Sequence record: JN673056 | Strand: one strand, 5' to 3' | Source: Escherichia phage PhaxI | DNA: 64,000 bases | Shown: positions 1-55,754 of the stretch, piece after piece | How the letters are laid out: every line of letters starts with the position of its first letter | Numbering within the stretch: the stretch's first letter is position 1 | Notes under the pieces: model-generated | What the model was told of the DNA's origin: nothing | Seen by the model: the letters and a program-made list of their open reading frames with translations, nothing else | Database searches by the model: none | Program-made: the position numbers and the translations under genes

Positions 1-1154
1 GCATAGAACGCCATGATGAAGTCTGCAACCTTCGGAATACCGATAGCATCTGCCAGGTCGCTAATATCACCATCAGTCGCCGATTGTTTTTCACGGTTAA
101 ATTGCATACCTGTCCATACAGGGCAATCAAATTCAAATCCAAGCGCACGGAATTCACGCGCCACCGACGTATAATACACGTTGGTGTTCTGCATTAAATG
201 GGCAGGAAGGCGAGAAGACGCTGATTCACCCAAGTAGTCTATAATAATGACGTCCGGCGTAATTCCCGTGGATGTCGCATAATCAAGGATATCGCGGCGA
301 TATAGTCCTGTATGCCCAGCGCCTGAAGGATATTCCTTGATAACAATATCACCCTTCATGGAACCGTCTTGACGAGTTCGCAACTTTTGTATCGTGGCGA
401 CATATTCATGTCGTGAGAGCTTCTCTAAGGACTCGAAGTCCCTGCGCATCATACGGGCATCAAGGCGGTGACGCCAGACGTTCTCAGCCACTTCTAGGGT
501 GAATACGAATACGTTCAACCCTTGCTCGGAGTAACCAGCAGCCAAATCAATCAGAGTTGTTGTCTTACCCGCATTAATTGCACCCGTCACGATGTTCAGC
601 GTTTTCTTACCAACACCACCACGAGTCGCTTTGTTGAATATCTCTACAGCGAAAGGAATCTTCGCTTCATTAGAGTTCATGTGGTCGTATTGTTGTTCAG
701 CCATTTCCCAATAGATATGGCCAAGATAAGAATCAAAACTTATCGCCAACGCCTCTTGTAGGAGAGTTGGAATCGTGTTCATCTCATCTTTACGTTTCTC
801 ATCACCATAGATGTTGACGGCGTGTTTGATCGCATTATGAACAGCTTTCTGCCGCGCCCAACTTTCTGTTTCTTTTACAAGCCATTCCTGATGGAATGTG
901 TTGTCATTGATATTCTCAAGAGCAGAAATAGCTTGTTCAAATACGTGTTCGTTGAGCGAAGTCTTTTCCAGCATAATAGACAACGCTTCAACCGAAGGAC
1001 GAGCATTATATTCGCAAGTGTAATGGTCAATGAGACCGAATATAATTTTCTCGCCTTCGTTATCGAAATAATCGGCTTTCAAATACGGCTGGATCTTTCT
1101 TTGATATTCTTCGTTATAGATTAATTGGGAAAGCACGACAGATTCGAGTAACAT
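1..1154 (-). CDS. 41: Replicative DNA helicase gp41 (DnaB-like); partial, gene runs off the window start
   Basis: Manual minus-strand translation from ATG at 1154: MLLESVVLSQLIYNEEY...WLVKETESWARQKA...; Walker A GAINAGKTT at plus 570-596; frame stays open to position 1; resembles T4 gp41; T4-like uvsX-40-41 order. Confidence 0.75.
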   Translation of the reverse strand, partial: MLLESVVLSQLIYNEEYQRKIQPYLKADYFDNEGEKIIFGLIDHYTCEYNARPSVEALSIMLEKTSLNEHVFEQAISALENINDNTFHQEWLVKETESWARQKAVHNAIKHAVNIYGDEKRKDEMNTIPTLLQEALAISFDSYLGHIYWEMAEQQYDHMNSNEAKIPFAVEIFNKATRGGVGKKTLNIVTGAINAGKTTTLIDLAAGYSEQGLNVFVFTLEVAENVWRHRLDARMMRRDFESLEKLSRHEYVATIQKLRTRQDGSMKGDIVIKEYPSGAGHTGLYRRDILDYATSTGITPDVIIIDYLGESASSRLPAHLMQNTNVYYTSVAREFRALGFEFDCPVWTGMQFNREKQSATDGDISDLADAIGIPKVADFIMAFY

Positions 1155-1160
1155 TGGCAA

Positions 1161-1490
1161 CTACCCCACCAAAATTTTGTTGTAATCCTGAGCATTTTGC
1201 TGTATCAGATCAACTAAGATATCCCCAGACACCACAGTGAACAAGTCATTTTCTTTCAAATTAACAAATAACAAACGCCATGGTTTCTTCAATATATCTG
1301 TTGTAAAGGATAACCGAGGCTCTCCATTGTCTAAATGGACACCCACTTTCCCTATACGAAATTGAACGCCGCGGAATTTGCCTTCCGTTATTTCGATTAT
1401 TGCTAACTGATCAGAACCAGGGTCGATGATTTTGTAATTAACGGGGGAGTCTCCTCCCCCTGCAATATTACTCGGTTGTTTTGATGACAT
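1161..1490 (-). CDS. Hypothetical protein (occupies the T4 gene 40 position between uvsX and 41)
   Basis: 109-aa ORF; ATG lies inside the uvsX 3' end (gat AAT Gtc); no recognisable motif. Confidence 0.45.
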   Translation of the reverse strand: MSSKQPSNIAGGGDSPVNYKIIDPGSDQLAIIEITEGKFRGVQFRIGKVGVHLDNGEPRLSFTTDILKKPWRLLFVNLKENDLFTVVSGDILVDLIQQNAQDYNKILVG

Positions 1491-2553
1491 TATCGAGGCG
1501 CTCCAGCATATCTGCAGGCATAACCGAACTCTGAGAGATACCGAACATGTTGTTCACATCGTCAACAAAGTCTGGGTTTTCCAGCAGCGGATACCAGAAG
1601 TCATCCCCCAGCTCTGCCTTACGATATTTCTTTTCTTTTTCTGGATCAAACCCGCCTTTGGCAGTGCGTTGATACCAAGAACCACTCACCAAATCCACAT
1701 ACCCCAGCATGCGCGCAATTTCTAACATACCGGACCAACGGTCAATACCGCCTTCATACAACACAGTGACAGGGAACTTGGCTTTTTCACGGACAAAGCG
1801 GCCTTTCATAATGTTGACTGTAAACTGCCATCCCAAAAGGTCTTTGTCTTCTTTAACTTGAGAACGCGTGATGAACCACAATTGGTTAGAAGACAGGAAC
1901 CCCTGTTTACCGCCTTTGATGTTCGGCTCGGCGTATTGGTTCCCGATTTCATCATAGTACGAGTTGATCCATACCAAAACGAATTTCTTTTCAGTGACCA
2001 ACGGGGTGATAACACGCCAAAAACTATTGAGAGCGCGAGCGCGGGTCATATCTTGCGTGTCTTTGCCCGCGATGGCATCATCAACTTCTTTGGTAGACGG
2101 CAACTGGCTGATTGAGTCAATGAATACGATGATCTTGTCACCTTTCTGTGCATCGTTCAGAAGCTGTGTCAGCTTGATCTTCGTCTTTTCAACGTTTTCA
2201 ATCGGCAGATACAAGACACGGTCCATGTCAATACCCATAGATGTCCAGTAGTTTTCATTCGCACCGCCTTCTGAATCCGCGAAGATACAAATTGCATCAG
2301 GAAACTTATCCATGTAAGCCTTAACATCCACCAGCCCAAACATGGTTTTGAATGTACGAGAATCCCCCACCAACTGTTTGATGCCTGATATCAGACCACC
2401 ATCAATACGACCGGACCAGGCCAAATTCAGAATAGGAATACCCGTACTGCAAATAATGTCAGGCTTCAGCGCATCGGTCTTTGACAGCACTTCGGCATTC
2501 GGGTCCAGTTTCTTTGCTGTCTTGAGCATGCGAGCCATCAATGAATCGGCCAT
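1468..2553 (-). CDS. uvsX: UvsX RecA-like recombinase
   Basis: 361 aa; RecA-fold core with P-loop-like VGDSRTFKT and C-terminal RecA-like region; synteny with 41. Confidence 0.85.
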   Translation of the reverse strand: MADSLMARMLKTAKKLDPNAEVLSKTDALKPDIICSTGIPILNLAWSGRIDGGLISGIKQLVGDSRTFKTMFGLVDVKAYMDKFPDAICIFADSEGGANENYWTSMGIDMDRVLYLPIENVEKTKIKLTQLLNDAQKGDKIIVFIDSISQLPSTKEVDDAIAGKDTQDMTRARALNSFWRVITPLVTEKKFVLVWINSYYDEIGNQYAEPNIKGGKQGFLSSNQLWFITRSQVKEDKDLLGWQFTVNIMKGRFVREKAKFPVTVLYEGGIDRWSGMLEIARMLGYVDLVSGSWYQRTAKGGFDPEKEKKYRKAELGDDFWYPLLENPDFVDDVNNMFGISQSSVMPADMLERLDNVIKTTE

Positions 2554-3068
2554 TTCGTTTCCTCTTGCTTGTTGATCGTAATTAATAAATCGGTGCCCAA
2601 GACTTTCTTGGACAATATATTGATTGCTTCATGAATCGCCATTATTGACGGGAGTTTTTCATCGTTAATTTCGGAACCCCCGCGTTCTGTTAAATACATA
2701 TTACGCAGACGATTGTGCTGTGCCCTGTTGACACAAGAAACATTCAATGCGATATTCAGGATATACATCATTTGTTCAGTTGTAACATCCTTTGGAATAG
2801 CATGAACATAATATATCGCATCTTCAAAATAGATATGCTGTAATGACTCTGGAATTTCTTCCCCGCCAAAAGCAAAATCTTCAATGCGTTTAAAAAGTGT
2901 TTCCGGCTCTGGTGTTGTAATATGTTGCGTTACAGTAGCCGCACCATCTGGTTCTTTGTTGAATTTGGTCGCGATAACGACATGTCTGCCAGGTTTAATA
3001 AACTCAGCAAAGTTCTGTGCCATTTGCGGGGCGTGTTCCGCGTAATATGATACGACGACTGTAAACAT
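2538..3068 (-). CDS. Hypothetical protein
   Basis: 176-aa ORF tightly packed between uvsX and the pyrophosphatase gene; no motif recognised. Confidence 0.45.
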   Translation of the reverse strand: MFTVVVSYYAEHAPQMAQNFAEFIKPGRHVVIATKFNKEPDGAATVTQHITTPEPETLFKRIEDFAFGGEEIPESLQHIYFEDAIYYVHAIPKDVTTEQMMYILNIALNVSCVNRAQHNRLRNMYLTERGGSEINDEKLPSIMAIHEAINILSKKVLGTDLLITINKQEETKWPIH

Positions 3069-3613
3069 TAGAACTCCAGAGTCAAAGGGGTTTCCGCGGA
3101 CTTATCATAGTTCGCACCGCCAGCAGCACGTAGACGATTGCGATCGTTCTTGCGCTTGTGGGCCAGCATGTAGGTCTCAGCATCCAGCCCCAAATATCCG
3201 CAAGCCGCTGCCAAGAAGGTAGCCAAAACATTCCGAAGAGGGTGTGACATGAAATACGTGAACAGTTCAGTCACTTTCCTGAGGTCGTGAGGGGTTTGAA
3301 TTGGCTGCGCCTGAACGAATCTCACCATTTCGGGAATATCGTGTGGTTTGTCTTCCTCCTGCAGGACAGCACAGAGCATGAAGTGAACAACGTCCACCAA
3401 CTCGTATATGGCATCCACTTGTCGCCAATGCTTACCACCCCCATAGATCTTCCAGTCTATGGTTGTTTCGTCTAGAAACTCTGCCCACTCACGATAGATG
3501 GAGTTTGCTATCGCCACTTCGGTCCAGCGCTTCTTCCACTCTTCCCCAAAATAGGCCACGTTGGTGGCCTTTTGAAGTTCGAGCAGACTTTTAATATGCT
3601 CTGCTGTGATCAT
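3068..3613 (-). CDS. All-alpha NTP pyrophosphatase (dimeric dUTPase/dCTPase-like; possible T4 gp56 analogue)
   Basis: 181 aa; LLELQKATN...EEW...REWAEFLDE...VDVVHFML pattern typical of dimeric dUTPase/dCTPase/MazG-like enzymes; abuts the dNMP kinase gene. Confidence 0.5.
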   Translation of the reverse strand: MITAEHIKSLLELQKATNVAYFGEEWKKRWTEVAIANSIYREWAEFLDETTIDWKIYGGGKHWRQVDAIYELVDVVHFMLCAVLQEEDKPHDIPEMVRFVQAQPIQTPHDLRKVTELFTYFMSHPLRNVLATFLAAACGYLGLDAETYMLAHKRKNDRNRLRAAGGANYDKSAETPLTLEF

Positions 3614-4194
3614 TTCCGATCCCTATAAAATTTGACGAACGGTTGCCAACCTTCAAACGGATTGACAAATTCATAATCAACTTCCATCTTATCAATGAAA
3701 GCCTCAATGTCATCCTCTATGATACCACCGCGATCCGCCTTTGAAATGCGGGTGATGGGACATTTAGTGCTCAGCGCCCATTCATATTCCTGAGGGGTGC
3801 GCAAATCACTCACGATATAATGAACGTGTGGGTTCTGTTCCACCAAAGGAAGTTGATATCGTTTAAAGAATGACAGAAACAGGTCTGGTTGTACGTAACG
3901 CAAGCCCGTATCGCTGCCGAGATGAAGCCAGATCTGCCTTGGGGTTAATCCCTTGGGGTTATCTGGGTGAACATATGGCAAGTCCTTGATGTCGTCCTCC
4001 ACCTCCGCTGGTAGCCATGGGTAGATGAAATTGGCGACACGTCGCAGTTCATCTGAGAAAGACAGACGACGAATATCCTTATCACCCTGAATATGATGAA
4101 ACCTGATCAGGGACTCCAAACAGAAGTCCTTGCCGGAGCGCTTGCGCCCCGTGAAGAATTCAAGGTTCTGGTACATCATTCGCCATACCCCCAC
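3610..4194 (-). CDS. Deoxynucleoside monophosphate kinase (T4 gp1-like)
   Basis: P-loop TGRKRSGKDF near the N-terminus, as in T4 dNMP kinase (VKRSGKD); 194 aa. Confidence 0.6.
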   Translation of the reverse strand: MGVWRMMYQNLEFFTGRKRSGKDFCLESLIRFHHIQGDKDIRRLSFSDELRRVANFIYPWLPAEVEDDIKDLPYVHPDNPKGLTPRQIWLHLGSDTGLRYVQPDLFLSFFKRYQLPLVEQNPHVHYIVSDLRTPQEYEWALSTKCPITRISKADRGGIIEDDIEAFIDKMEVDYEFVNPFEGWQPFVKFYRDRK

Positions 4195-5219
4195 ATAAAT
4201 TTCTGATCAACAGGGGAATGTAGTAATGCAGTACGAAGACCGTCATCAGCGATACGGCGTTTGTCAATTTTGGTATCATTGAGTCGACACCACAGGCAAT
4301 ATGACATATCCATCATCAATCCCGTGTCTGCTTGATATCCTTTCAGATGTTCTCTGATTTTACCAAAATCACTGCCGATGTCACAGTGATGTAACACGCC
4401 GAGGAATAGATTACAAATATCTTTTTGGGACTTCACTTTTTCTGAAGAGAATTCCAGCAAAGAATTATACATCCCAGAAGAAGTTTTGGTCTTCTTAGTG
4501 ATACCCCCGAGTTGTTTCCGACTAACTTCATTGTTGTAATAATGAAGATTGTTAGAAAACAGTTTGTAATACCCAACTTCGACATTCAGCACTTTCGCCA
4601 GAACTTCTTGCAGGATAGAGAATTCAATGAAATTGATTGAACTCATGCCCCACAAGACATCTTGGCTGCGGTTAATGACAGTGATATTCAATCGCCCTTC
4701 TGTTATACTGAACAATAGAGCAAGATTACAGATCATGTCCTTGGTCTTGGCTTCTCCAGTTTCACTATGGGTGGCCAAACCTTCATCTGAGTCCAGCGCC
4801 GGATCATAGATGGTGAGATACGCCTGACGGGTGTTGGGATTATTACGCAGACGGCTGATGACACTATCCAACTGGCCATTATTGTACAGACGTGGGCCAT
4901 ACGCGCCTCGCCAGGTTACACCGTCATCAGAGAAGTTGGCGGCGCGGGGTAAGACTTTCGAAAGGAAACGGATATCATTACGTCCGGACAACACCCAGAA
5001 TGTCTCACCGATGGCAGCAATTGCCGACGAGTTGCGGCCTTCAACGGAAAGCCAACGGTCACGTGGATCTGATACTGTAATTGTTACACCATCAATGAAA
5101 CGAGTGCCGTCAGTGTTAATCTCTGCGTTGCCAGGATCTGACTCAATGCCGTGTTCACGGATGGCCAACACAGCCTTCTTCAGCATATCATTATTGTTTA
5201 AAGCAAAAATTTCCATCAA
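4176..5219 (-). CDS. Thymidylate synthase-family enzyme (deoxypyrimidylate hydroxymethylase/methylase-like) with a C-terminal extension
   Basis: 347 aa; TS-like blocks ETFWVLSGRND, TRQAYLTIYDP, candidate nucleophile Cys in DMICNLALLF followed by RSQDV...SSINF (aligns by eye with TS PPCH...RSCDV...PFN); about 100 extra C-terminal residues. Confidence 0.6.
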   Translation of the reverse strand: MMEIFALNNNDMLKKAVLAIREHGIESDPGNAEINTDGTRFIDGVTITVSDPRDRWLSVEGRNSSAIAAIGETFWVLSGRNDIRFLSKVLPRAANFSDDGVTWRGAYGPRLYNNGQLDSVISRLRNNPNTRQAYLTIYDPALDSDEGLATHSETGEAKTKDMICNLALLFSITEGRLNITVINRSQDVLWGMSSINFIEFSILQEVLAKVLNVEVGYYKLFSNNLHYYNNEVSRKQLGGITKKTKTSSGMYNSLLEFSSEKVKSQKDICNLFLGVLHHCDIGSDFGKIREHLKGYQADTGLMMDMSYCLWCRLNDTKIDKRRIADDGLRTALLHSPVDQKFMWGYGE

Positions 5220-5890
5220 TCAATACTCCCAAAATCACGATTGAGAAACGCAAAAACAGCCTGCTCTATAGTCAGGCCATTGGACTTCATCATACCTGCG
5301 GGAACGGTAGGGAACAAGCCTTTATGCCGTTGGCGGTGGTCATGAACTCTCTCCCACTTCTCGACCACCAGGCTTTCATTGAAGTCTGCGCCGCCGTTGC
5401 GTGATTTCACACGGGAAACACAGGTTTCAAGCGGGGTGTCCATGAAGAGCACGACTAATTCGCGCGGTGGGCGCGTCAGGCGGGGAATCCATGAGCTGAG
5501 CAAAGTTGAAGGGATGATTCCTTCAAACAACACGTCATATTTCAGATATTCCGGCTGATCAGCAATGGACAAGGCGAACAACATCTGCTCGGTATCTTTC
5601 AGGGAATCAACACCTTTAGACTTAGACTTGTCATATTTACCAATACAGATAATGTTATAGGAAGGGCAAACTGTGAGCATGATCTTGCCATTGTAGGTCA
5701 CGACATACGCCTGAGGATCATTCTCCGCCAGATAGGAAGGGACAGTGGACTTGCCGCTACCGTTGGAGCCTTTAACGTAATACAACTCTCCTCGTGCCGG
5801 ATATTCCCCTTCGACAGCAGGTGGTTTTACAAACAGATGTACGGGGCGCTTCAACAACCCTTTGAGCGAATACGACATGGTGTGCTCCAA
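5216..5890 (-). CDS. P-loop kinase (nucleotide or polynucleotide kinase-like)
   Basis: Walker A GSNGSGKST at residues ~42-50; 224 aa; ATGA-type overlap with the TS-family gene. Confidence 0.5.
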   Translation of the reverse strand: MEHTMSYSLKGLLKRPVHLFVKPPAVEGEYPARGELYYVKGSNGSGKSTVPSYLAENDPQAYVVTYNGKIMLTVCPSYNIICIGKYDKSKSKGVDSLKDTEQMLFALSIADQPEYLKYDVLFEGIIPSTLLSSWIPRLTRPPRELVVLFMDTPLETCVSRVKSRNGGADFNESLVVEKWERVHDHRQRHKGLFPTVPAGMMKSNGLTIEQAVFAFLNRDFGSID

Positions 5891-5950
5891 TAAACAAAAG
5901 GAGCTGCTATTATAGCAGCCCCTTCATCTATTGAATGCTTCTGAGTTAAA

Positions 5951-6910
5951 TTACGCAGCAGCTTTCGCTTCGGCCAACGCCTGAGGTAGCCATTCGTTGA
6001 TAGCCTTTACCAGAGATTCAGCGTCAGTTTCTTTGATTTTCTGACGCTTGGTGAATGACTTACCATTCACATACAGACTGAAACCCCAGCCGCCGGAAAC
6101 GATAGGCGCCAGATCAACATAGGTGTTAGTGCGGGCATGCGGATTGGCTTCGTCTGCCAATTCAGTGACAGGGAACTGGAACCAGCGCATATCAGGGTTC
6201 ACATAACTCAAATATACTTCAGGAGTAACCCCTGCTTCAACCGCCGCCAGGATTGGACCATAGTTAGAAGCACGAGCCGCTTCAACCATTTCTTCACGCT
6301 TGTTATGACGACGCTTGCGTTCTTCGGTAGAAGATGCAGGGCGCATTTCAGAAGATTTCTTGGCCAGAACCGCCTTCGCGTTCGCTAAAGCCTGATCATC
6401 CTTCGGATTTTCAACGTCGGCGATTGCTTCAGCAACGGTTGTGCCCAGCATGCGACGGCGAACTTCTTCAGCACGGGCTTGCGCTTCTTCGTCAAGAACT
6501 TCTTCGCCTTCAACTACCAGGGAAATGGAACCGTCTTTGTTGACTTCAAGAGAACCGTCTTCGACGGTCTGGGAATTTTGATCACCGACAGGTTGCCCAA
6601 CCGTTTCTTCGGCGTCAATCACCGGATTTGATTCACCGTCGCCCTGTTTAACCCCCGCATCTTCGGTCGGTTTAACTTTTTCGGCTTCAGCGCGGTCAAG
6701 AGCTTCGAGAGTTTCTTCTTTCTCTTCCTGGCTCAGACCTTCAATGAGTTCAAAGCCGTTGGCTGACTGGAGGACGCCTTCCATCATACGGCGTAATGTT
6801 ACATTGCCAATGATAAGGTCTGCACCTTTGATTTCTGCTTGAAGATCAGCAGCGGTTTTACCATCAATTTCAAATTTCAGGCCGGACTCGATATGAAGAA
6901 TATAGGACAT
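5951..6910 (-). CDS. Hypothetical protein with a strongly acidic central region
   Basis: 319-aa ORF with an E/D-rich low-complexity middle; AAAGGG RBS upstream. Confidence 0.5.
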   Translation of the reverse strand: MSYILHIESGLKFEIDGKTAADLQAEIKGADLIIGNVTLRRMMEGVLQSANGFELIEGLSQEEKEETLEALDRAEAEKVKPTEDAGVKQGDGESNPVIDAEETVGQPVGDQNSQTVEDGSLEVNKDGSISLVVEGEEVLDEEAQARAEEVRRRMLGTTVAEAIADVENPKDDQALANAKAVLAKKSSEMRPASSTEERKRRHNKREEMVEAARASNYGPILAAVEAGVTPEVYLSYVNPDMRWFQFPVTELADEANPHARTNTYVDLAPIVSGGWGFSLYVNGKSFTKRQKIKETDAESLVKAINEWLPQALAEAKAAA

Positions 6911-7083
6911 AATAAAAACCCTTTTGTGTAGTAACCTTCTTTGGCAGTCTAATGTTCAACTGTGCGTCTGGAACATTAATATACTGCCTTTTTAGAAGAT
7001 GTAAACCACTTTTTATTGAAAAGTTGGTTAACACTTCTGTGTTAGACAACGGAACGCTGTATCAGCGCGGACTGGCGTGAATA

Positions 7084-7371
7084 TTAACTTTGTATATCAA
7101 TATTGAAAACTGTTTCAGGTGGCCACATGGCAGACAACTCGATCTGTGTGAACTTTGGTTGAACATACTGATCTAACACTTCATCCCAGAGAGCATGTTC
7201 TATGTTAGCAATCAACAATTCGTCGTCCACTATTTCGACGGAATGAACCACTATCCGGTGGTCATAAGTCAAAGCATCGCTCACATGATCATTTTCTGCT
7301 CTCAGGTGCTGCATTATGAAATATTCGATTACAGATTCCAGTACCGTGTTCAGGCGAACATATTTCTTCAT
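7084..7371 (-). CDS. Hypothetical protein
   Basis: 95-aa ORF in the minus-strand gene series. Confidence 0.4.
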   Translation of the reverse strand: MKKYVRLNTVLESVIEYFIMQHLRAENDHVSDALTYDHRIVVHSVEIVDDELLIANIEHALWDEVLDQYVQPKFTQIELSAMWPPETVFNIDIQS

Positions 7372-7388
7372 ACAGCCCCCTGCTTGTG

Positions 7389-8135
7389 CTACAGATAGAA
7401 ATTAGGAATTTCGCCGGATTCACAACCAAACCCGTTAAAATTCTGCTCAACATGTAAGCGAATTTTGTTCACCACTACCTGACGATGCTCTTCTTCCATA
7501 CAACGTTCAATCAAAGAATACGCTGTATATGACAGACTGTTGAACAATCTGGAAATAACAAGGCAATTCTCTTCATTGTAAACGACTTCAGTATGGATTG
7601 CGAAAGCGTGGTCTTCGTCGGTAAGAATTTTACAGCCTTTGACCACAAATGGTTTTTCAAAGAAATCACGAGCTGAATCAGTGCCAGATTCTGGCATTAA
7701 ACGGAAATCGCCTTCTTCGCCGAAAACCGCTTTCAGATTTTCTTTACTGAATTCCGCTTCCATCTGTATACGTTTGTCGGCAAGATATTTCGCCGCAAAG
7801 TAGAATTTACCCACTGCATCATTAGCAGCGCGGCGGTTCGTAGCGGCCTGGGTATAACCAGAAACGAAGTCTTCAATGAATTCCAATGCTTCTGGTTTGC
7901 CAAAACGAATTTCGTCGCCCAGATCCAAGCTGGCTTCGGAATCAAGTTCAATACCCATAACCTTAAGAAGATCCGTTTCATTCAGCCTGTGCTGATTAAA
8001 CAATTGTTCCTTGGAATATCCCAACTGGCTACCGAGTTCATATCCGGTTTTACCACCCGAATCTTTATGGGTGCGATCATAGCGAACGCAATTAGAACTG
8101 AATTCAATACCAAAAATACGATGTAGCTGTGACAT
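7389..8135 (-). CDS. Hypothetical protein
   Basis: 248-aa ORF; no motif recognised. Confidence 0.5.
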   Translation of the reverse strand: MSQLHRIFGIEFSSNCVRYDRTHKDSGGKTGYELGSQLGYSKEQLFNQHRLNETDLLKVMGIELDSEASLDLGDEIRFGKPEALEFIEDFVSGYTQAATNRRAANDAVGKFYFAAKYLADKRIQMEAEFSKENLKAVFGEEGDFRLMPESGTDSARDFFEKPFVVKGCKILTDEDHAFAIHTEVVYNEENCLVISRLFNSLSYTAYSLIERCMEEEHRQVVVNKIRLHVEQNFNGFGCESGEIPNFYL

Positions 8136-8196
8136 ATCATAACCTCATGTTTATAGAAAGCCGTTCGCGAATTATCACGTAGAACGGCTTTTAGAA

Positions 8197-8901
8197 CTAA
8201 CCATTTTTGTGTTTACGACGTGCGTCCTTCCAAACAGACATCTGACTCTGTTTCTGGAATCGAGCAGTACGCATAAACAAAACGACCTCCCAATATTGCG
8301 GTTCAATTTCATAAAGTTGTGAACGAAATTGATCTGCGCGGTATAATTTGACACAATGATTGTACAAAGGGTGATTCGCAAACCGCTTTAGCGCATCCCA
8401 GGTAAGTCTCAAACGTGTTTTAGAACGATACGCCCGTTCATTTCTCAATTTAATGAGATCTTCAAATACCAACAATCTGAGTTTAGGCGGTAAATAATGG
8501 AGGTTTAGGCCATAAAGATAGGTTACACCACGTTCACCGAATTTCACCCCATCCCCCTTCACAAAATTGAAGAAGAACACCAGAGGATACATATCCCAAT
8601 ACGGGAGTTCATCTTTAGTCAGCGCATCATATTTGAAATAATACATGCGACCAACAATATAACGCACACCCTGAACAGGACGTTTATTTTCAGCGAATGC
8701 TTTCATCATGTGATTCGGAGATAAGTTAGCATCTTTCGACACGCGCTCCATAAACCACACATGAGAACGACGGATATTACGCTTCGCTTCCGGCCCAAAA
8801 TGTTGACGATATTTGCGGATGTAACGCTTGACCAGTTCTGGGGCGTCCATCTCGGCGGGAAGCAACAACGGGTCTTCTTCACCCATAGCGTTCTTAGCCA
8901 T
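8197..8901 (-). CDS. Hypothetical basic protein (possibly a gp2/gp4-like head-completion or DNA-end protein; not verified)
   Basis: 234 aa, K/R/W-rich; transcribed divergently from a late structural gene as T4 genes 4/2 are from 53. Confidence 0.45.
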   Translation of the reverse strand: MAKNAMGEEDPLLLPAEMDAPELVKRYIRKYRQHFGPEAKRNIRRSHVWFMERVSKDANLSPNHMMKAFAENKRPVQGVRYIVGRMYYFKYDALTKDELPYWDMYPLVFFFNFVKGDGVKFGERGVTYLYGLNLHYLPPKLRLLVFEDLIKLRNERAYRSKTRLRLTWDALKRFANHPLYNHCVKLYRADQFRSQLYEIEPQYWEVVLFMRTARFQKQSQMSVWKDARRKHKNG

Positions 8902-8913
8902 TTGTCAACTCCT

Positions 8914-8921
8914 TATAAATA
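8914..8921 (+). promoter_or_regulatory. T4-type late promoter motif TATAAATA
   Basis: Exact TATAAATA about 35 nt upstream of the GTG start at 8956, in a divergent intergenic region. Confidence 0.5.
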
Positions 8922-8955
8922 TCAACAGATATATTATTTAAATGGAGTCCTCATC

Positions 8956-9900
8956 GTGGAAGACTATCGCAATTTTCTAACGCAACTGCTTCAACGGGGT
9001 ATTTCCCGCAAGAACAGATTTCGTGTTACAATTCCGTTGCCGCCTGGGATATTTGATTCCAATGCAACACTAGCAAATGATGGGAACGCGTATCCTTCAT
9101 CTTCATCATTTGGGGATCTGTTCAAACAAAGCGCCCGTATTGTAAACGCATTCTTTGGAGGGACAAACCAAACATCTCGTTCCCTGCAAATGATGTGTAT
9201 GGTCGCATCTTTACCTGGTACAGGGATTGACACTACTCCCATGACCAACAACGGCAACCACATTAAAATGCCGAACAACAAGACGAACATTGATCTGGAG
9301 TTGTCGTTCCTCCTCGCCAACGATTATTATGAAAAGTCGGTCATGGACAAATGGAAGAATCTGATATTCGACCCATACACAACCAAGATGGGTTATTATG
9401 AAGATTTCGTGACCGATATTTGTATAGAACAAATGGATACAGAAGATCAGGTTGTTCATCGCGTTTATGTGACTGAGGCTCACCCCATCAACTTCAGTTC
9501 TATAGACCTGGATAAAAGCGCCGCCGATCAATTTAATCAGTACAACATTTCCTTTTCTTATAACAAAGTATTATCGGAGACTGAATATGAAACGCGCAGC
9601 CTCGCCAGCGATTTTCTTCCTTTGGGTATTACTGATGCTCTTGCTTCCGGAGACTGGGAAACCGCTGCGTCAAAAGCCGGACAGCTGTATAAAAAGATCA
9701 AAGAAGGAAACTTCACAGGTGAAGCCCTGCTGGCTTATAAGCAACTCGATCAGCTTGTAAACAATCTGGCTGGTATCAGCTTGGCTGATTTCGAAAGGAT
9801 CTCTATCGGCATCCAGAGGGATATATTAGGCAATGATAACCTGACGGCGTCTGAGAAGAGTAGTCTGTTGGGATTGTTACAGGATGTTGTCAAAAACTAA
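8956..9900 (+). CDS. Putative virion structural protein (late gene; baseplate/tail-associated?)
   Basis: ORF is open from 8761, but GTG at 8956 is preceded by GGAG (8944-8947) and the late promoter; 314 aa from the GTG; followed by a terminator hairpin. Confidence 0.5.
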   Translation: MEDYRNFLTQLLQRGISRKNRFRVTIPLPPGIFDSNATLANDGNAYPSSSSFGDLFKQSARIVNAFFGGTNQTSRSLQMMCMVASLPGTGIDTTPMTNNGNHIKMPNNKTNIDLELSFLLANDYYEKSVMDKWKNLIFDPYTTKMGYYEDFVTDICIEQMDTEDQVVHRVYVTEAHPINFSSIDLDKSAADQFNQYNISFSYNKVLSETEYETRSLASDFLPLGITDALASGDWETAASKAGQLYKKIKEGNFTGEALLAYKQLDQLVNNLAGISLADFERISIGIQRDILGNDNLTASEKSSLLGLLQDVVKN

Positions 9901-51086: not shown

Positions 51087-53105
51087 TTAGAAAATGACTT
51101 TTACAGTACGGTTAAACGCGCCGGACACTTTGACGAACACGTGGTTGCGTTGCGTCGTCGAGAATCCCAGACCGGACAGTTGGTTTTCATTCGGCTGGAC
51201 TTTCATTTTACTACCCAACATTTCAAAAACCTTACGATGTTTATCCAGTTCCGGCTTCAGATATTCGTTGTAGAAACCACGAGTACCTTCAGGATTAGCA
51301 CAGCCTTCCAGGATGAAGAACACGTGCTTGTTGCCTGTCTGCTCGCCATCCCAATGGTTTGGTGAGTTCAGGACCAGCTGTACTTTCTGGAAGGTCGCAG
51401 TCTTGATACCCCAAACTTCTTTAGACTTATCAACATTAGCCAGTTCGGACTTAATGCCAACAACTTGTTTGTCTTTAACAGTCAAGATGACTGCGGTGAT
51501 ACGTCCCTGATCTTTCAGGCCAGGATGGCTGAAACGATGCGTTGCGCCTTTGTATTCTACTTCGACTTCAAACCCTTCGTCGATTTTTTCACGTTGATTG
51601 TAGTTGTGGATTTCGAAACGGTATTCACCATCGCGCAGCTTGCTTTCATCTGTAAAGATGATATTTTCCACCGGAGCGCGGTTTGGATCAATACCATCCA
51701 TACCGTTCATATCGATATCCAGATGGGCACCTGTCATAGAGCGGCGATCGCGGAAGTAAACGTGCTCCATGTTGTTGAACATATGCAGATCGAGGTCGTC
51801 GTTATTGTGCCACGCCAAGGAAACGCGCAGATACCCGTCAACTTTACCGCCAGCAGCCTTTACACGTTCTTTAATGGAATCGGTCACTTCACCGTTGTAA
51901 GACCAGGAGAACCCGTTGTTCCACTTGAACAGGTTAGGCGCATCTGGGTTCGCCGGAGCAACCAGGGACATCAGGTTGCTAGTATGAGAATTCTCTACAA
52001 GCACTTCCATTGAATGCGCTTTTGGCAGAACATTGCTCAGGAAATCATCAACGCTGATCTCTTCAACTTTTTCCAGGGACTTGGTCGGAGTTTTCACTTC
52101 GGCGGCCAGCTGTGCAAACGGATCCATCGCTTTCTGAGCAGCCAGATCTGCGAACAGAACGTTGTTGATTGTCAGATCATCGTAAACCGCATAACGACGC
52201 GCCAGTGAGTCTTCCAAACCCAGAGCAATAACTTCTTTCTGAGCGTTTTCGATCATGGATTTTGAAACCAGCGCTGTCGGACGTTTGTAGTTCGCCGGAG
52301 CAACTTTGGATTCAAACGATTTAACAGCCTTTTCCAGTTCCACGCCTTCACTGATATCTGTCAGCAGAGTGCCGATAACTGTGTTGCGGATGCCGTGTGG
52401 AACATGATTGTTTGAACGGTATCCAGTATGCCATGCCCAAAGAGAACGGGCTGATTCGGGGACTTGTTCATATGCCTTTTTGGTTTCAACAAATCCCTTC
52501 ACTGCTGCTTTGTGTTCTGCGCCGCGATACAGAGAATTCTGGTCAATCAGTTCCAGAACGATTTCAGCTGATTCCAGAGTAATTTCACGCAGACCGCGTT
52601 CAAACAATTCAATAGCCTGGCGGATTTCACCTTTTTTCGAAGCGATTGCGTCCGGACGCAGAACATAGCTACCAAGTAATTGGGTATGGAAATGATTGTA
52701 AGTACGGATTTTGCCATCTTCACCAGATTCGTGATTGTGAGACAGGCCGACTTTGGCAGAATCGTTAAAATAAACATCGACGATTGCGTGTTGTTTGACA
52801 TACGCGGAAAGAGCCGCAGCCACCACGTCATATTCATTACCCAGATCAATGTTGTCCCAGATAGAAATTACGTTCAGTTCTGAATCGATGGTGACAACAC
52901 CGCCGATGTTACGGATGAATTGTTTACAGCAGGTGCAATCGTGTTCAGTACGTTCGCGGTACAGCGGGTTAGTACCAGCAGGGAAAGATGCCAGATACAG
53001 ATCCCAAAGAGCATCTTTATCGATATTGGTCATGAACAGACCAGTTGCGGACATCGCCAGCACGTTGTTATTAACTGCCGTTGCGAAGGGTTTGAATTCT
53101 GCCAT
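51087..53105 (-). CDS. Large hypothetical protein (672 aa)
   Basis: Long ORF; N-terminal HDCTCC; a KVDGYLR tract noted but not assignable to a family. Confidence 0.55.
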   Translation of the reverse strand: MAEFKPFATAVNNNVLAMSATGLFMTNIDKDALWDLYLASFPAGTNPLYRERTEHDCTCCKQFIRNIGGVVTIDSELNVISIWDNIDLGNEYDVVAAALSAYVKQHAIVDVYFNDSAKVGLSHNHESGEDGKIRTYNHFHTQLLGSYVLRPDAIASKKGEIRQAIELFERGLREITLESAEIVLELIDQNSLYRGAEHKAAVKGFVETKKAYEQVPESARSLWAWHTGYRSNNHVPHGIRNTVIGTLLTDISEGVELEKAVKSFESKVAPANYKRPTALVSKSMIENAQKEVIALGLEDSLARRYAVYDDLTINNVLFADLAAQKAMDPFAQLAAEVKTPTKSLEKVEEISVDDFLSNVLPKAHSMEVLVENSHTSNLMSLVAPANPDAPNLFKWNNGFSWSYNGEVTDSIKERVKAAGGKVDGYLRVSLAWHNNDDLDLHMFNNMEHVYFRDRRSMTGAHLDIDMNGMDGIDPNRAPVENIIFTDESKLRDGEYRFEIHNYNQREKIDEGFEVEVEYKGATHRFSHPGLKDQGRITAVILTVKDKQVVGIKSELANVDKSKEVWGIKTATFQKVQLVLNSPNHWDGEQTGNKHVFFILEGCANPEGTRGFYNEYLKPELDKHRKVFEMLGSKMKVQPNENQLSGLGFSTTQRNHVFVKVSGAFNRTVKVIF

Positions 53106-53201: not shown

Positions 53202-53609
53202 TTAAACGGGAATCATGTTTACTCGAATACTTCTGAACTGTTTCCCGTCATAACTGGTGTAACCAACAACCGTAACTGATCTTGTTCCCTTTGGATAACC
53301 CTTTGGAGTACTCACAACGCGCACAGGGCGCTTGCTTTCTTTATCGTATTTCGAAATCAATTTCAAAAGATGTTTATCGATCTGGCTTAAACTATCACCA
53401 TACACGGTATATTGATATTGCTCGCAATTACCCAACAAAATGATAAATTTATAAATTTTGTCGACCAAAGATCGACATTTTGGATCATCATAATGATGCC
53501 GACAGACTTGACATTCATATTTCCCAGTATTCATGTTGAACAATTTTGTCGCCCGACTTGAACACGCTGGGCATACTTTCCATGAACGATGATGTTTTAC
53601 GGGTTTCAT
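53202..53609 (-). CDS. Zinc-ribbon protein
   Basis: CPACSS...CQVCRH (two CxxC pairs); 135 aa. Confidence 0.45.
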   Translation of the reverse strand: MKPVKHHRSWKVCPACSSRATKLFNMNTGKYECQVCRHHYDDPKCRSLVDKIYKFIILLGNCEQYQYTVYGDSLSQIDKHLLKLISKYDKESKRPVRVVSTPKGYPKGTRSVTVVGYTSYDGKQFRSIRVNMIPV

Positions 53610-54832
53610 TTTTTCATCTTCTCTAACAGATTAATAGAACGAACGGGAGTCTTCTGTAATGGCTGATTAACTTCACCACCATTATACCCCACCTTTCCTC
53701 GAGGTTTCTCCCCGCGCATCACCGCCTCAACGCAGCGGGTATATTTCTGAAGTTCACAGAACATGTTCTCCAACTGCATAACATTCATGCAACGGTCTTC
53801 CGGTTCTTCTGCCGACCAAAATTCATTACGTTTATACCCGTACTGAGCGAACAATTGATCTTGATGATCACGAACCCAGAATATGCATTCTTCATGCGTC
53901 ATGCCGTCCTTGTCCAAAAATAACAGATCGATACCAGCACGGCAACCTGGACCAGCGATAGTGAAGTGGTTTTCACTGAATGGATATTCATCGATGTATG
54001 TAAAATCAACCCAAATCTGGTATGCCAAGAATGGTCCAAGCCCCTCAATGTCGTCATACATCGCCTGGTAAACAGAGTCGGGACGGCTAAATTCCCTGAG
54101 GCGATCAAAGTAATGAGGGTGTTTGTTGACGAATGCCTTCAAAGAGCGGATGACTCGCATCGGCATGTATGGTTCCCAGCCTTCTATTTTGTATTCACCA
54201 GGATTATCTTCGGCCAGCTTCTTGGCAACCTTGTAATCCATTTCATCTATAACACCGCCAACCCGATGGACTTTTACCTTCATGCCGCCAAAGCGTTGCT
54301 CCTTGTGGTTGACAACTAGTTCAGGGAAAGCCAGGCATTGTTTCAGACCGCCTGTATTAAACGCATTGGTGAAAACTTTGCCACCTTTAGATTCGAATTC
54401 CTGAAGAACATCTCGACACCATTCAAGATTTATGTTTCCGAATTCTTCGATCGTCCATGGACCACCCAAAGCCTGTATAGGTTCCCACATGTTGTACATG
54501 CGGAACAATACACAGTTGAACATTTTGTCAGATAGCGTGAGATCCTGATCGAGGATGATATTATTGATCAAATTTCGAGACTGCCTATCGTGCTCTCTCC
54601 GGACGTTACAGAACTTGACCTGCCGTAGTATGGGATTATCCGTCCAAGGAGCAGGAAGACGCTGGACGTCCTTTCTCACGTGGATCTTATAACGCTCGCT
54701 CATCCATTCGTATGCGAGTTGTTTATGGAATGGGCTTAACATGGGATGTGCAGATTTAATTTTAACTTCCCGAACACCGCAATAAGGAATGTCACACGGT
54801 TTATCTTTCATGGTATCCTCTCTAGAATACAA
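53606..54832 (-). CDS. Hypothetical protein (408 aa)
   Basis: Long ORF with no recognised motif. Confidence 0.5.
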   Translation of the reverse strand: MYSREDTMKDKPCDIPYCGVREVKIKSAHPMLSPFHKQLAYEWMSERYKIHVRKDVQRLPAPWTDNPILRQVKFCNVRREHDRQSRNLINNIILDQDLTLSDKMFNCVLFRMYNMWEPIQALGGPWTIEEFGNINLEWCRDVLQEFESKGGKVFTNAFNTGGLKQCLAFPELVVNHKEQRFGGMKVKVHRVGGVIDEMDYKVAKKLAEDNPGEYKIEGWEPYMPMRVIRSLKAFVNKHPHYFDRLREFSRPDSVYQAMYDDIEGLGPFLAYQIWVDFTYIDEYPFSENHFTIAGPGCRAGIDLLFLDKDGMTHEECIFWVRDHQDQLFAQYGYKRNEFWSAEEPEDRCMNVMQLENMFCELQKYTRCVEAVMRGEKPRGKVGYNGGEVNQPLQKTPVRSINLLEKMKK

Positions 54833-54881: not shown

Positions 54882-55754
54882 TTAATCGAAGCGAGAGAGG
54901 TGTGTCACAGTGTTTTGAACAGGTGCGCACGCGTATACACGAACATTAGCACCCCACACCCCACACAGCTTAGGCATATTGGTATCGTTAATGATATACG
55001 CTGGCACATAACTTTCAATTTGGCCGTTAACATCTACGGGTCGAGAAGATTTTTCAACTGCCATAGAAAGAATTATTTCCAACGTTTTTGGAGATACCAA
55101 ACGCCACGCCGTCAAATCATCAACAAATACCTGACCTTCTTCAATTGCCATGCTGGCAACGATGTCATTGATCTGACGGGAAGGGGTATTCGTCAGCATA
55201 TCAGAGAAATCAGGCTCTTTGAACACAGCCATGTTTTTCAGGAATTTTCCTTTCGGATATTCTTTGCCATTCCACATCACAGTCTCATTCACTTTGATGC
55301 ATGCCTGAGGGAATTCACCTTCAACGCGTAACTGGCCAACTGGGAAACCGCGTGAATAATAATATTCCAGTGCCGGACCGACTTCATCTTCTGAGCGAAT
55401 AAATTTGCTCATGTTGGAGGCATAAACACGCTGCAAGCACTCATCGCCGTTGAAACCAGCAATGTGTGCCACGCCGTCATTGACTGTTGTGATGTCGCCC
55501 TGAGCGTCCAAAATCTGGCGCATAATGTCTTTGATGTCGACAACAGCAGGTTCTTTCAGGACTCGCGGAGATGCAGTGAACTCAATTTTCACCTCGTGGT
55601 CGAAATAAGCCGCTTCCAGTAATTCGCGGGTCTCTTCCAGAACCAGTTTGGCCTGATTGCGAATTTTACCGAAGTCAGGGGCTGTAATATCTCCAGCCGC
55701 ATTACCAAAAGCCAAATTCAGTCTCACGTTTTTATTAAATGTAGTTGTCATAAT
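54882..55754 (-). CDS. Hypothetical protein (N-terminal MazG-like helical motif; weak)
   Basis: Start set at MTTTFNK; KLVLEETRELLEAAYF; the track ORF extends to 55838, overlapping regA. Confidence 0.45.
   Translation of the reverse strand: MMTTTFNKNVRLNLAFGNAAGDITAPDFGKIRNQAKLVLEETRELLEAAYFDHEVKIEFTASPRVLKEPAVVDIKDIMRQILDAQGDITTVNDGVAHIAGFNGDECLQRVYASNMSKFIRSEDEVGPALEYYYSRGFPVGQLRVEGEFPQACIKVNETVMWNGKEYPKGKFLKNMAVFKEPDFSDMLTNTPSRQINDIVASMAIEEGQVFVDDLTAWRLVSPKTLEIILSMAVEKSSRPVDVNGQIESYVPAYIINDTNMPKLCGVWGANVRVYACAPVQNTVTHLSRFD

Follow-up and report, generated by a model that had tools for sequence, protein, structure and literature searches.

The system closest to the one analyzed here is the thymidine hypermodification pathway of Salmonella phage ViI and related members of the Ackermannviridae. 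In ViI, CBA6, CBA120 and Vibrio phage 1.255.O, about 40% of thymine (T) is replaced by 5-(2-aminoethoxy)methyl-deoxyuridine (5-NeOmdU, 301 Da), and the DNA of ViI and CBA120 combines normal dC with modified dU (Lee et al., 2018 PNAS, PMC5889632). The same study reported that a putative 5-hydroxymethyldeoxyuridine (5-hmdU) DNA kinase (5-HMUDK) co-associates with a 'dUMP hydroxymethyltransferase' of the thymidylate synthase (TS) family, and that five ViI lysates (gp67, gp160, gp226, gp243 and gp247) rebuilt 5-NeOmdU on DNA containing 5-hydroxymethyluracil (hmU). Both gp67 and gp243 were then shown to phosphorylate 5-hmdU in DNA, gp247 to transfer serine, yielding O-serinyl-thymidine (O-SerT), and the pyridoxal phosphate enzyme gp226 to decarboxylate this product to 5-NeOmdU; the pre-replicative logic of such systems comprises a dUMP hydroxymethylase, a deoxynucleoside monophosphate (dNMP) kinase, a dTTPase/dTMPase and a dCMP deaminase (Lee et al., 2021 NAR, PMC8989533). 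The TS homolog and 'P-loop kinase-1' are already listed as modification genes in later Ackermannviridae genome papers, and a 2024 review describes the modification genes as conserved across the family. Here we analyze a block of five genes at positions 2538-5890 (minus strand) of a 64-kb stretch of the genome of Escherichia phage PhaxI (JN673056), hereafter the window, to which all coordinates refer.

The block very probably encodes, for a Kuttervirus phage, the pre-replicative arm of the ViI-type thymidine hypermodification pathway together with the enzyme of its first post-replicative step; this phage almost certainly packages DNA with a large fraction of T present as 5-NeOmdU. The module is thus already known from the work on ViI cited above and involves no new biology; every step of the pathway already has its own named family in Pfam.

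Organization of the module and its counterpart in ViI

The five genes, listed in the order of transcription with their predicted products, are the following.

5216-5878, minus strand: 5-hmdU DNA kinase (5-HMUDK, 'P-loop kinase 1'), 220 aa, PF18748, Walker A motif GSNGSGKST, ortholog of ViI gp67
4176-5216, minus strand: TS-superfamily dUMP 5-hydroxymethyltransferase, 346 aa, PF00303 on residues 67-234, ortholog of ViI 'thyA' Vi01_060c
3610-4179, minus strand: gp1-like dNMP kinase, 189 aa, phrog_139, P-loop GRKRSGKD
3068-3613, minus strand: all-alpha dNTP pyrophosphatase (dimeric dUTPase / T4 gp56-like), 181 aa, PF08761, phrog_173
2538-3068, minus strand: phage ACT-like protein, 176 aa, PF24021 (E 2.5e-86)

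All five open reading frames (ORFs) are present in the translated ORF set, are co-oriented on the minus strand and lie directly 5' of uvsX. The junctions read, in order, TGATG, ATGA (between the TS homolog and the dNMP kinase), ATGA and TAATG; the last gene then overlaps uvsX by 16 nt. The first-pass annotation of this sequence had described five co-oriented, translationally coupled genes upstream of uvsX, and this arrangement holds in the ORFs and junction sequences, except that the real starts of three genes lie a few codons inside those of the ORF list. The kinase ORF, listed as 5216-5890 (224 aa from TTG), has a better start at ATG 5878, with GGAG 7 nt upstream, and those of the TS homolog (listed as 4176-5219) and the dNMP kinase (listed as 3610-4194) have better starts at ATG 5216 and ATG 4179, respectively.

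The region shows 93-98% nucleotide identity to about 160 Kuttervirus genomes (ViI-like Ackermannviridae of Salmonella and E. coli O157), which places the window, as judged by sequence, in this genus. Comparison with the ViI (Vi01) proteins by tblastn gave 99.5% identity over 220 aa between the kinase and gp67 (Vi01_061c, YP_004327432), 99.7% between the TS homolog and Vi01_060c, 97% between the dNMP kinase and Vi01_059c ('dnk'), 89.5% between the pyrophosphatase and Vi01_058c, and 92.6% between the ACT-like protein and Vi01_057c. The first-pass annotation had proposed, from a T4-like combination of a pyrophosphatase, a TS-family hydroxymethylase and a dNMP kinase, that the phage makes a non-canonical pyrimidine, a proposal that agrees with the published ViI pathway in view of the near-identity of the kinase and the TS homolog.

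The 5-hmdU DNA kinase

The first gene of the block encodes a 220-aa protein that scores 387 bits (E 1.7e-116) on PF18748 (HMUDK_HMUD1), for which the cut-off is 27, and aligns with all 196 positions of this profile; the P-loop GSNGSGKST is evident in the translation. Its ViI counterpart, gp67, has been shown biochemically to phosphorylate 5-hmdU in DNA (PMC8989533). The protein, previously noted only as an 'extra P-loop kinase', is accordingly predicted to be a 5-hmdU DNA kinase that acts on the nucleobase in polymerized DNA and not on nucleotides. The 5-HMUDKs of the Pseudomonas M6/PaMx11 group share about 31% identity with it. The extra kinase and the enlarged TS homolog had together been taken as signs of modification beyond the hydroxymethyl stage, in agreement with the presence of 5-NeOmdU in ViI and the activity of gp67 on 5-hmdU DNA.

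The TS homolog

The TS homolog matches PF00303 at 54.4 bits (cut-off 24.3, E 1.3e-14) over residues 67-234 only. It failed the test for ThyA equivalogs, scoring about 32-53 bits on six NCBIfam models with cut-offs of 108-405 (best, 52.8 against 327), and is predicted not to be a plain ThyA. Its best relative among proteins of solved structure is the CMP hydroxymethylase MilA (1e-17, compared with 3e-6 for TS). In the phage collection, the nearest relatives outside the Ackermannviridae are enzymes of Aeromonas, Vibrio and Maribacter phages; the SPO1-type gp29 of phage Goe9, annotated as 'deoxyuridylate hydroxymethyltransferase', is 33.6% identical (E 7e-27), the M6-group enzymes are about 35% identical, and T4-like td gives about 1e-6 to 1e-7.

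We aligned the TS homolog with E. coli ThyA, T4 gp42, Goe9 gp29 and the Ab19 enzyme of the M6 group. The catalytic Cys163, Arg183/Ser184/Asp186, His225/Tyr227, Glu71 and Tyr106 are conserved. Asn194 aligns with N177 of E. coli ThyA and with an Asn in both Goe9 gp29 and the Ab19 enzyme, whereas T4 gp42 has an Asp; the same residues are paired when the TS homolog is aligned by HMMER with a TS of solved structure, and MilA also has an Asp at this specificity position. The presence of Asn instead of Asp therefore argues for dUMP, not dCMP, as the substrate, and the modified base is predicted to derive from uracil/thymine and not from cytosine. Given these features and the hmU-derived base in ViI DNA, the product would probably be 5-hmdUMP, arising by hydration of the exocyclic methylene, and not dTMP.

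The TS homolog further shares with SPO1-type gp29 and the Ab19 enzyme a 'CN' motif after the catalytic Cys and a long C-terminus. In place of the C-terminus with which TS closes its active site, there is a non-TS segment of about 110 aa, which also occurs in gp29 (383 aa) and in the Ab19 enzyme (348 aa). The C-terminal extension of ~100 aa that was singled out in the first-pass annotation is thus present but is no oddity: because known dUMP hydroxymethylases have one too, the larger size is normal for the subfamily.

The dNMP kinase, the pyrophosphatase and the ACT-like protein

The dNMP kinase matches phrog_139 (E 7.8e-48), and its P-loop, LEFFTGRKRSGKD, shares G-x-KRSGKD, and little else, with that of T4 gp1, LIFLSGVKRSGKD. 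The one match from a Pfam scan (E 0.01) was sub-threshold, at 19.5 bits on phosphomevalonate kinase PF04275, whose cut-off is 33.8, and the Vibrio ortholog is sub-threshold on PF21448. The pyrophosphatase matches PF08761 nearly end to end (36.7 bits against a cut-off of 22.9, E 6.4e-9, profile positions 2-159 of 162), phrog_173 (E 2.4e-42) and the Campylobacter jejuni dUTPase 1w2y (2e-4), and shares the ELVDxxHF motif with T4 gp56; on the NCBIfam dUTPase equivalog it stays below the cut-off (25 bits against 300).

The occurrences of the ACT-like protein, a full-length member of the PF24021 family, are confined to Ackermannviridae (268 phage records; 8 protein clusters), and its gene invariably separates that of the pyrophosphatase from uvsX. 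In its AlphaFold2 model, the N-terminal domain is folded confidently as beta-alpha-beta-beta-alpha-beta (mean pLDDT per block 63-93, with values above 80 for residues 1-80), and the helical C-terminal half is unreliable. In a Vibrio ViI-like phage, the same slot holds an unrelated 204-aa protein, profile comparison of the two proteins having revealed no relationship; the ACT-like protein therefore occupies an accessory, variable slot and does not belong to the core chemistry.

Genome context and distribution of the pathway genes

Two features delimit the block.

1468-2553, minus strand: UvsX recombinase, downstream neighbor, PF00154 and PF21134, phrog_97
5897-5925, minus strand: terminator-like hairpin with a 13-bp stem and a subsequent T run, bounding the block on its upstream side

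UvsX, which plays no part in the modification chemistry, is only 72% identical to its ViI counterpart Vi01_056c. The hairpin, a strong one with TATAAT within the loop and stem, is located between a 319-aa gene and the ribosome-binding site of the kinase gene and may be both a terminator and a promoter element. The 319-aa gene (5951-6910, minus strand), directly upstream of the module, encodes an acidic Ala/Glu-rich protein that is 100% identical to Vi01_062c of ViI; it has no Pfam or NCBIfam match and matches phrog_3905, a profile to which no function is assigned.

In ViI, the counterpart of the window spans about 33-97 kb. When positions 1-9000 were compared with 33-42 kb of ViI, nucleotide identity was 97-100% at 3600-7200, about 71% across uvsX (1500-2400) and 70-76% at 7500-8100. 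Given these jumps in identity, the genome is a mosaic relative to ViI, and recombination breakpoints are suggested both inside and beside the module.

No homologs of gp226, gp243 or gp247 were detected in the window by tblastn, as expected, given that the ViI copies lie at 140-152 kb, near the DNA polymerase gene. Homologs of gp247 are present in essentially all Ackermannviridae records, at 80-100% identity across phages of Salmonella, Escherichia, Klebsiella and Dickeya, so that, by analogy, gp247 can be safely inferred to be encoded in this genome outside the window. The order kinase-TS-dNMPK-PPase-x-UvsX-x-helicase (x, other gene) is retained in a Vibrio ViI-like phage at about 40% protein identity. 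In this phage, Vibrio phage K471 (OZ195914.1, 112221-124850), the pathway genes form a single block of roughly 12 kb beside uvsX, in the order HMUD2, ADDT, x, x, HMUDK_hel, x, x, HMUDK, TS, dNMPK, dUTPase_2, x; the genes for the rest of the pathway, namely the HMUD2 kinase (PF18747), the amino-acid:DNA transferase (PF18724) and HMUDK_hel (PF18723), adjoin upstream. Enterobacterial Ackermannviridae carry these genes dispersed among three loci.

Predicted pathway and alternative explanations

In the pathway that we propose, the dUTPase-family pyrophosphatase would supply dUMP from dUTP and may deplete competing dNTPs, perhaps removing dTTP. The TS-family enzyme, with methylenetetrahydrofolate, would then convert dUMP to 5-hmdUMP, as its sequence features and the chemistry of the final base suggest. 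By analogy with SPO1, SP10 and PhiW-14, the gp1-like dNMP kinase would phosphorylate 5-hmdUMP to 5-hmdUDP, a host NDP kinase would produce 5-hmdUTP, and the phage polymerase would incorporate it in place of T. The 5-hmdU DNA kinase would next phosphorylate the 5-hydroxymethyl group of hmU within DNA, an activity that has been demonstrated for the nearly identical ViI gp67. The later steps would be performed by products of genes elsewhere in the genome: gp247 would swap the phosphate for serine to give O-SerT, and gp226 would convert the latter to 5-NeOmdU, both reactions having been shown for ViI.

Several points weigh against this reconstruction. The enzyme assays and the analyses of virion DNA come from ViI and its relatives, not from this phage, and the presence of gp226, gp243 and gp247, which are absent from the window, is deduced from relatives as well. 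The ViI-type TS homolog, a putative hydroxymethylase as opposed to a methylase, owes the name dUMP hydroxymethyltransferase to association in the ViI work cited above. The substrates assigned to the pyrophosphatase and the dNMP kinase follow from the pathway only. Finally, in direct BLASTP comparisons, the similarity to T4 gp1, gp56 and gp42 is limited to motifs, so that 'gp1-like' and 'gp56-like' are valid at the superfamily level only.

Among the alternatives, the least improbable, still very unlikely in our estimate, is that the front end is the same, with 5-hmdU incorporated and phosphorylated, but the final hypermodified base differs from that of ViI. The window does not include the downstream genes, the genome is a mosaic when compared with ViI (72% identity for UvsX and 80% for the gp160-type protein described below), and related phage groups are known to swap tailoring enzymes, resulting in different bases (PMC8989533). 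Nevertheless, the conservation of gp247 in the Ackermannviridae of the four host genera named above, and the occurrence of the same 301-Da base in ViI, CBA6, CBA120 and, despite its distance, Vibrio phage 1.255.O (PMC5889632), favor the ViI product.

It is slightly less probable still that the block serves ordinary nucleotide salvage, with a plain TS, a dUTPase and two nucleotide kinases raising the level of dTTP and no modification of DNA. 'Thymidylate synthase', 'dUTPase' and 'dNMP kinase' are the annotations in most GenBank records, and ViI DNA has about 60% of its T in canonical form (PMC5889632). Such a role is, however, hard to reconcile with the ThyA equivalog scores, which fall far under the cut-offs, with the replacement of the C-terminus that closes the TS active site, with the assignment of the second kinase to a DNA nucleobase kinase family and its 99.5% identity to a characterized enzyme, and with the demonstrable modification of ViI-like virion DNA (PMC5889632).

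A T4-style cytosine pathway, in which the TS homolog would be a dCMP hydroxymethylase, the pyrophosphatase a dCTPase and the DNA would contain hydroxymethyl-dC (hm-dC) or a derivative, appears scarcely tenable. The module does occupy a position beside uvsX, like 42 and beta-gt in T4, the pyrophosphatase and T4 gp56 share an all-alpha superfamily, and the best match of solved structure, MilA, is a cytosine-nucleotide hydroxymethylase. We discarded this possibility on two counts: the specificity position, where the TS homolog has Asn194 like E. coli ThyA and the SPO1-type dUMP hydroxymethylase and not the Asp of T4 gp42 and MilA, and the family of the adjoining kinase, which is that of 5-hmdU DNA kinases. 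The normal dC and modified dU of ViI and CBA120 DNA (PMC5889632) argue in the same direction. The first-pass annotation had invoked the enzyme logic of hm-dC synthesis; the hydroxymethylpyrimidine scheme stands, and the base is uracil-derived, not cytosine.

A role of the 220-aa P-loop protein as small terminase subunit, suggested by its name in many RefSeq records and by a match (E 1.5e-68) to phrog_800, labeled 'terminase small subunit', can be dismissed almost entirely, given that it covers only positions 2-220 of the 511-position profile while a gp160-type helical domain matches positions 376-472, that the small terminase of ViI is a separate protein encoded beside the large terminase (Vi01_162c), and that gp67 is biochemically a 5-hmdU DNA kinase (PMC8989533). 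Since the kinase and the gp160 domain match separate parts of phrog_800, this profile looks like a fusion of a kinase and a helical domain of the SP10 gp186 type; we regard it as the source of the label, which was discarded. The wrong name is carried by many RefSeq/GenBank records of Ackermannviridae, Vibrio and Pseudomonas phages.

The gp160-type gene and a possible route back to thymine

One further member of the pathway is encoded in the window, far from the module.

53606-54832, minus strand: clade-1 aGPT-Pplase / 'HMUDK helical domain' protein, PF18723, ortholog of ViI gp160

This protein matches PF18723 at E 6.1e-85 and is 80% identical to Vi01_130c. The ViI studies cited above assign no biochemical role to gp160. 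ViI has two kinase/aGPT-Pplase pairs, and the serine branch requires only gp247 together with either kinase. The other pair, consisting of the gp67-type kinase (5216-5878) and the gp160-type aGPT-Pplase, is encoded entirely in the window. In ViI-type phages, the remaining ~60% of the incorporated 5-hmdU is returned to plain thymine. When the aGPT-Pplase intermediate is chemically reduced, thymidine results (PMC8989533). One could speculate that the gp67-type kinase and the gp160-type protein form the branch that leads from 5-hmdU to thymine, through phosphorylation, an exocyclic methylene and reduction, with the ACT-like protein serving as a ligand-sensing regulator of the module. This idea, which we consider unlikely, draws on three points: the lack of an assigned role for gp160, the redundancy of the two kinases and the reduction of the intermediate to thymidine.

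The gp160-type gene adjoins a gene for a MazG-like pyrophosphatase (54882-55751, minus strand; phrog_2144), and the two genes are followed by regA-62-44-45; in T4, gene 43 precedes regA. Searches of the sequences of solved structures returned nothing useful for the MazG-like protein, the gp160 homolog, the 5-hmdU DNA kinase or the dNMP kinase. An intact 672-aa ORF at 51087-53105 (minus strand; phrog_1735, no Pfam match) corresponds in ViI to two annotated coding sequences, Vi01_128c and Vi01_129c.

Implications for annotation

For this window, the value of the analysis lies mainly in correct annotation. The names that have propagated through the databases are misleading: the TS homolog is called 'thymidylate synthase', and the kinase is called 'terminase small subunit' or 'hypothetical protein'. 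5-NeOmdU affects restriction digestion, sequencing, cloning and the resistance of the phage to host nucleases, and in ViI-like phages it blocks many restriction enzymes.

Comparison with other modification systems

Compared with ViI, the module consists of orthologous genes in the same order (Vi01_057c to Vi01_061c, then uvsX), and the gp160 ortholog is in the window as well. The differences are only allelic or mosaic, as in UvsX and gp160, with gp226, gp243 and gp247 located beyond the 64-kb window.

The SPO1 group of Bacillus hmU phages, with gp29, a dNMP kinase and a dTTPase/dUTPase, follows the same logic of replacing dTTP with 5-hmdUTP, and gp29 has the Cys, the Asn, the 'CN' motif and the long C-terminus in common with the TS homolog. 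The SPO1 group, however, stops at 5-hmdU (PMC8989533), and the Goe9 annotation shows no 5-hmdU DNA kinase next to gp29; for ViI-type phages, 5-hmdU is only an intermediate, which undergoes further conversion within the DNA. The Pseudomonas M6/PaMx11 group (5-NedU, 5-NmdU) has a homologous TS-family hydroxymethylase and 5-HMUDK, which are clustered, but employs other tailoring enzymes (glycine transfer, radical S-adenosylmethionine or flavin adenine dinucleotide enzymes) and arrives at other final bases.

The likeness to T4 is that of design. Enzymes of the same three superfamilies are involved (gp56 dCTPase, gp42 dCMP hydroxymethylase and gp1 dNMP kinase), and both systems work in two stages, modification of the nucleotide pool and then decoration of the DNA polymer. 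The suggestion that the module sits where T4 carries beta-gt and 42 is confirmed by the T4 gene order, 41-40-uvsX-segA-beta-gt-42, in the same orientation, compared with 41-x-uvsX-ACT-PPase-dNMPK-TS homolog-kinase in the window. The substrates differ, with uracil here (Asn) and cytosine in T4 (Asp in gp42), and so does the decoration, which is achieved by phosphorylation, serine transfer and decarboxylation here and by alpha/beta-glucosyltransferase glucosylation in T4. The group-transfer enzymes are amino-acid:DNA transferases of the aGPT-Pplase family, not glucosyltransferases; no glucosyltransferase is annotated in the equivalent region of ViI (33-97 kb), the ORFs of the window not having all been scanned individually. 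Thus, the module works like the T4 system but is not a member of it, because the base is uracil and the decoration proceeds through phospho-activation, serine transfer and decarboxylation.

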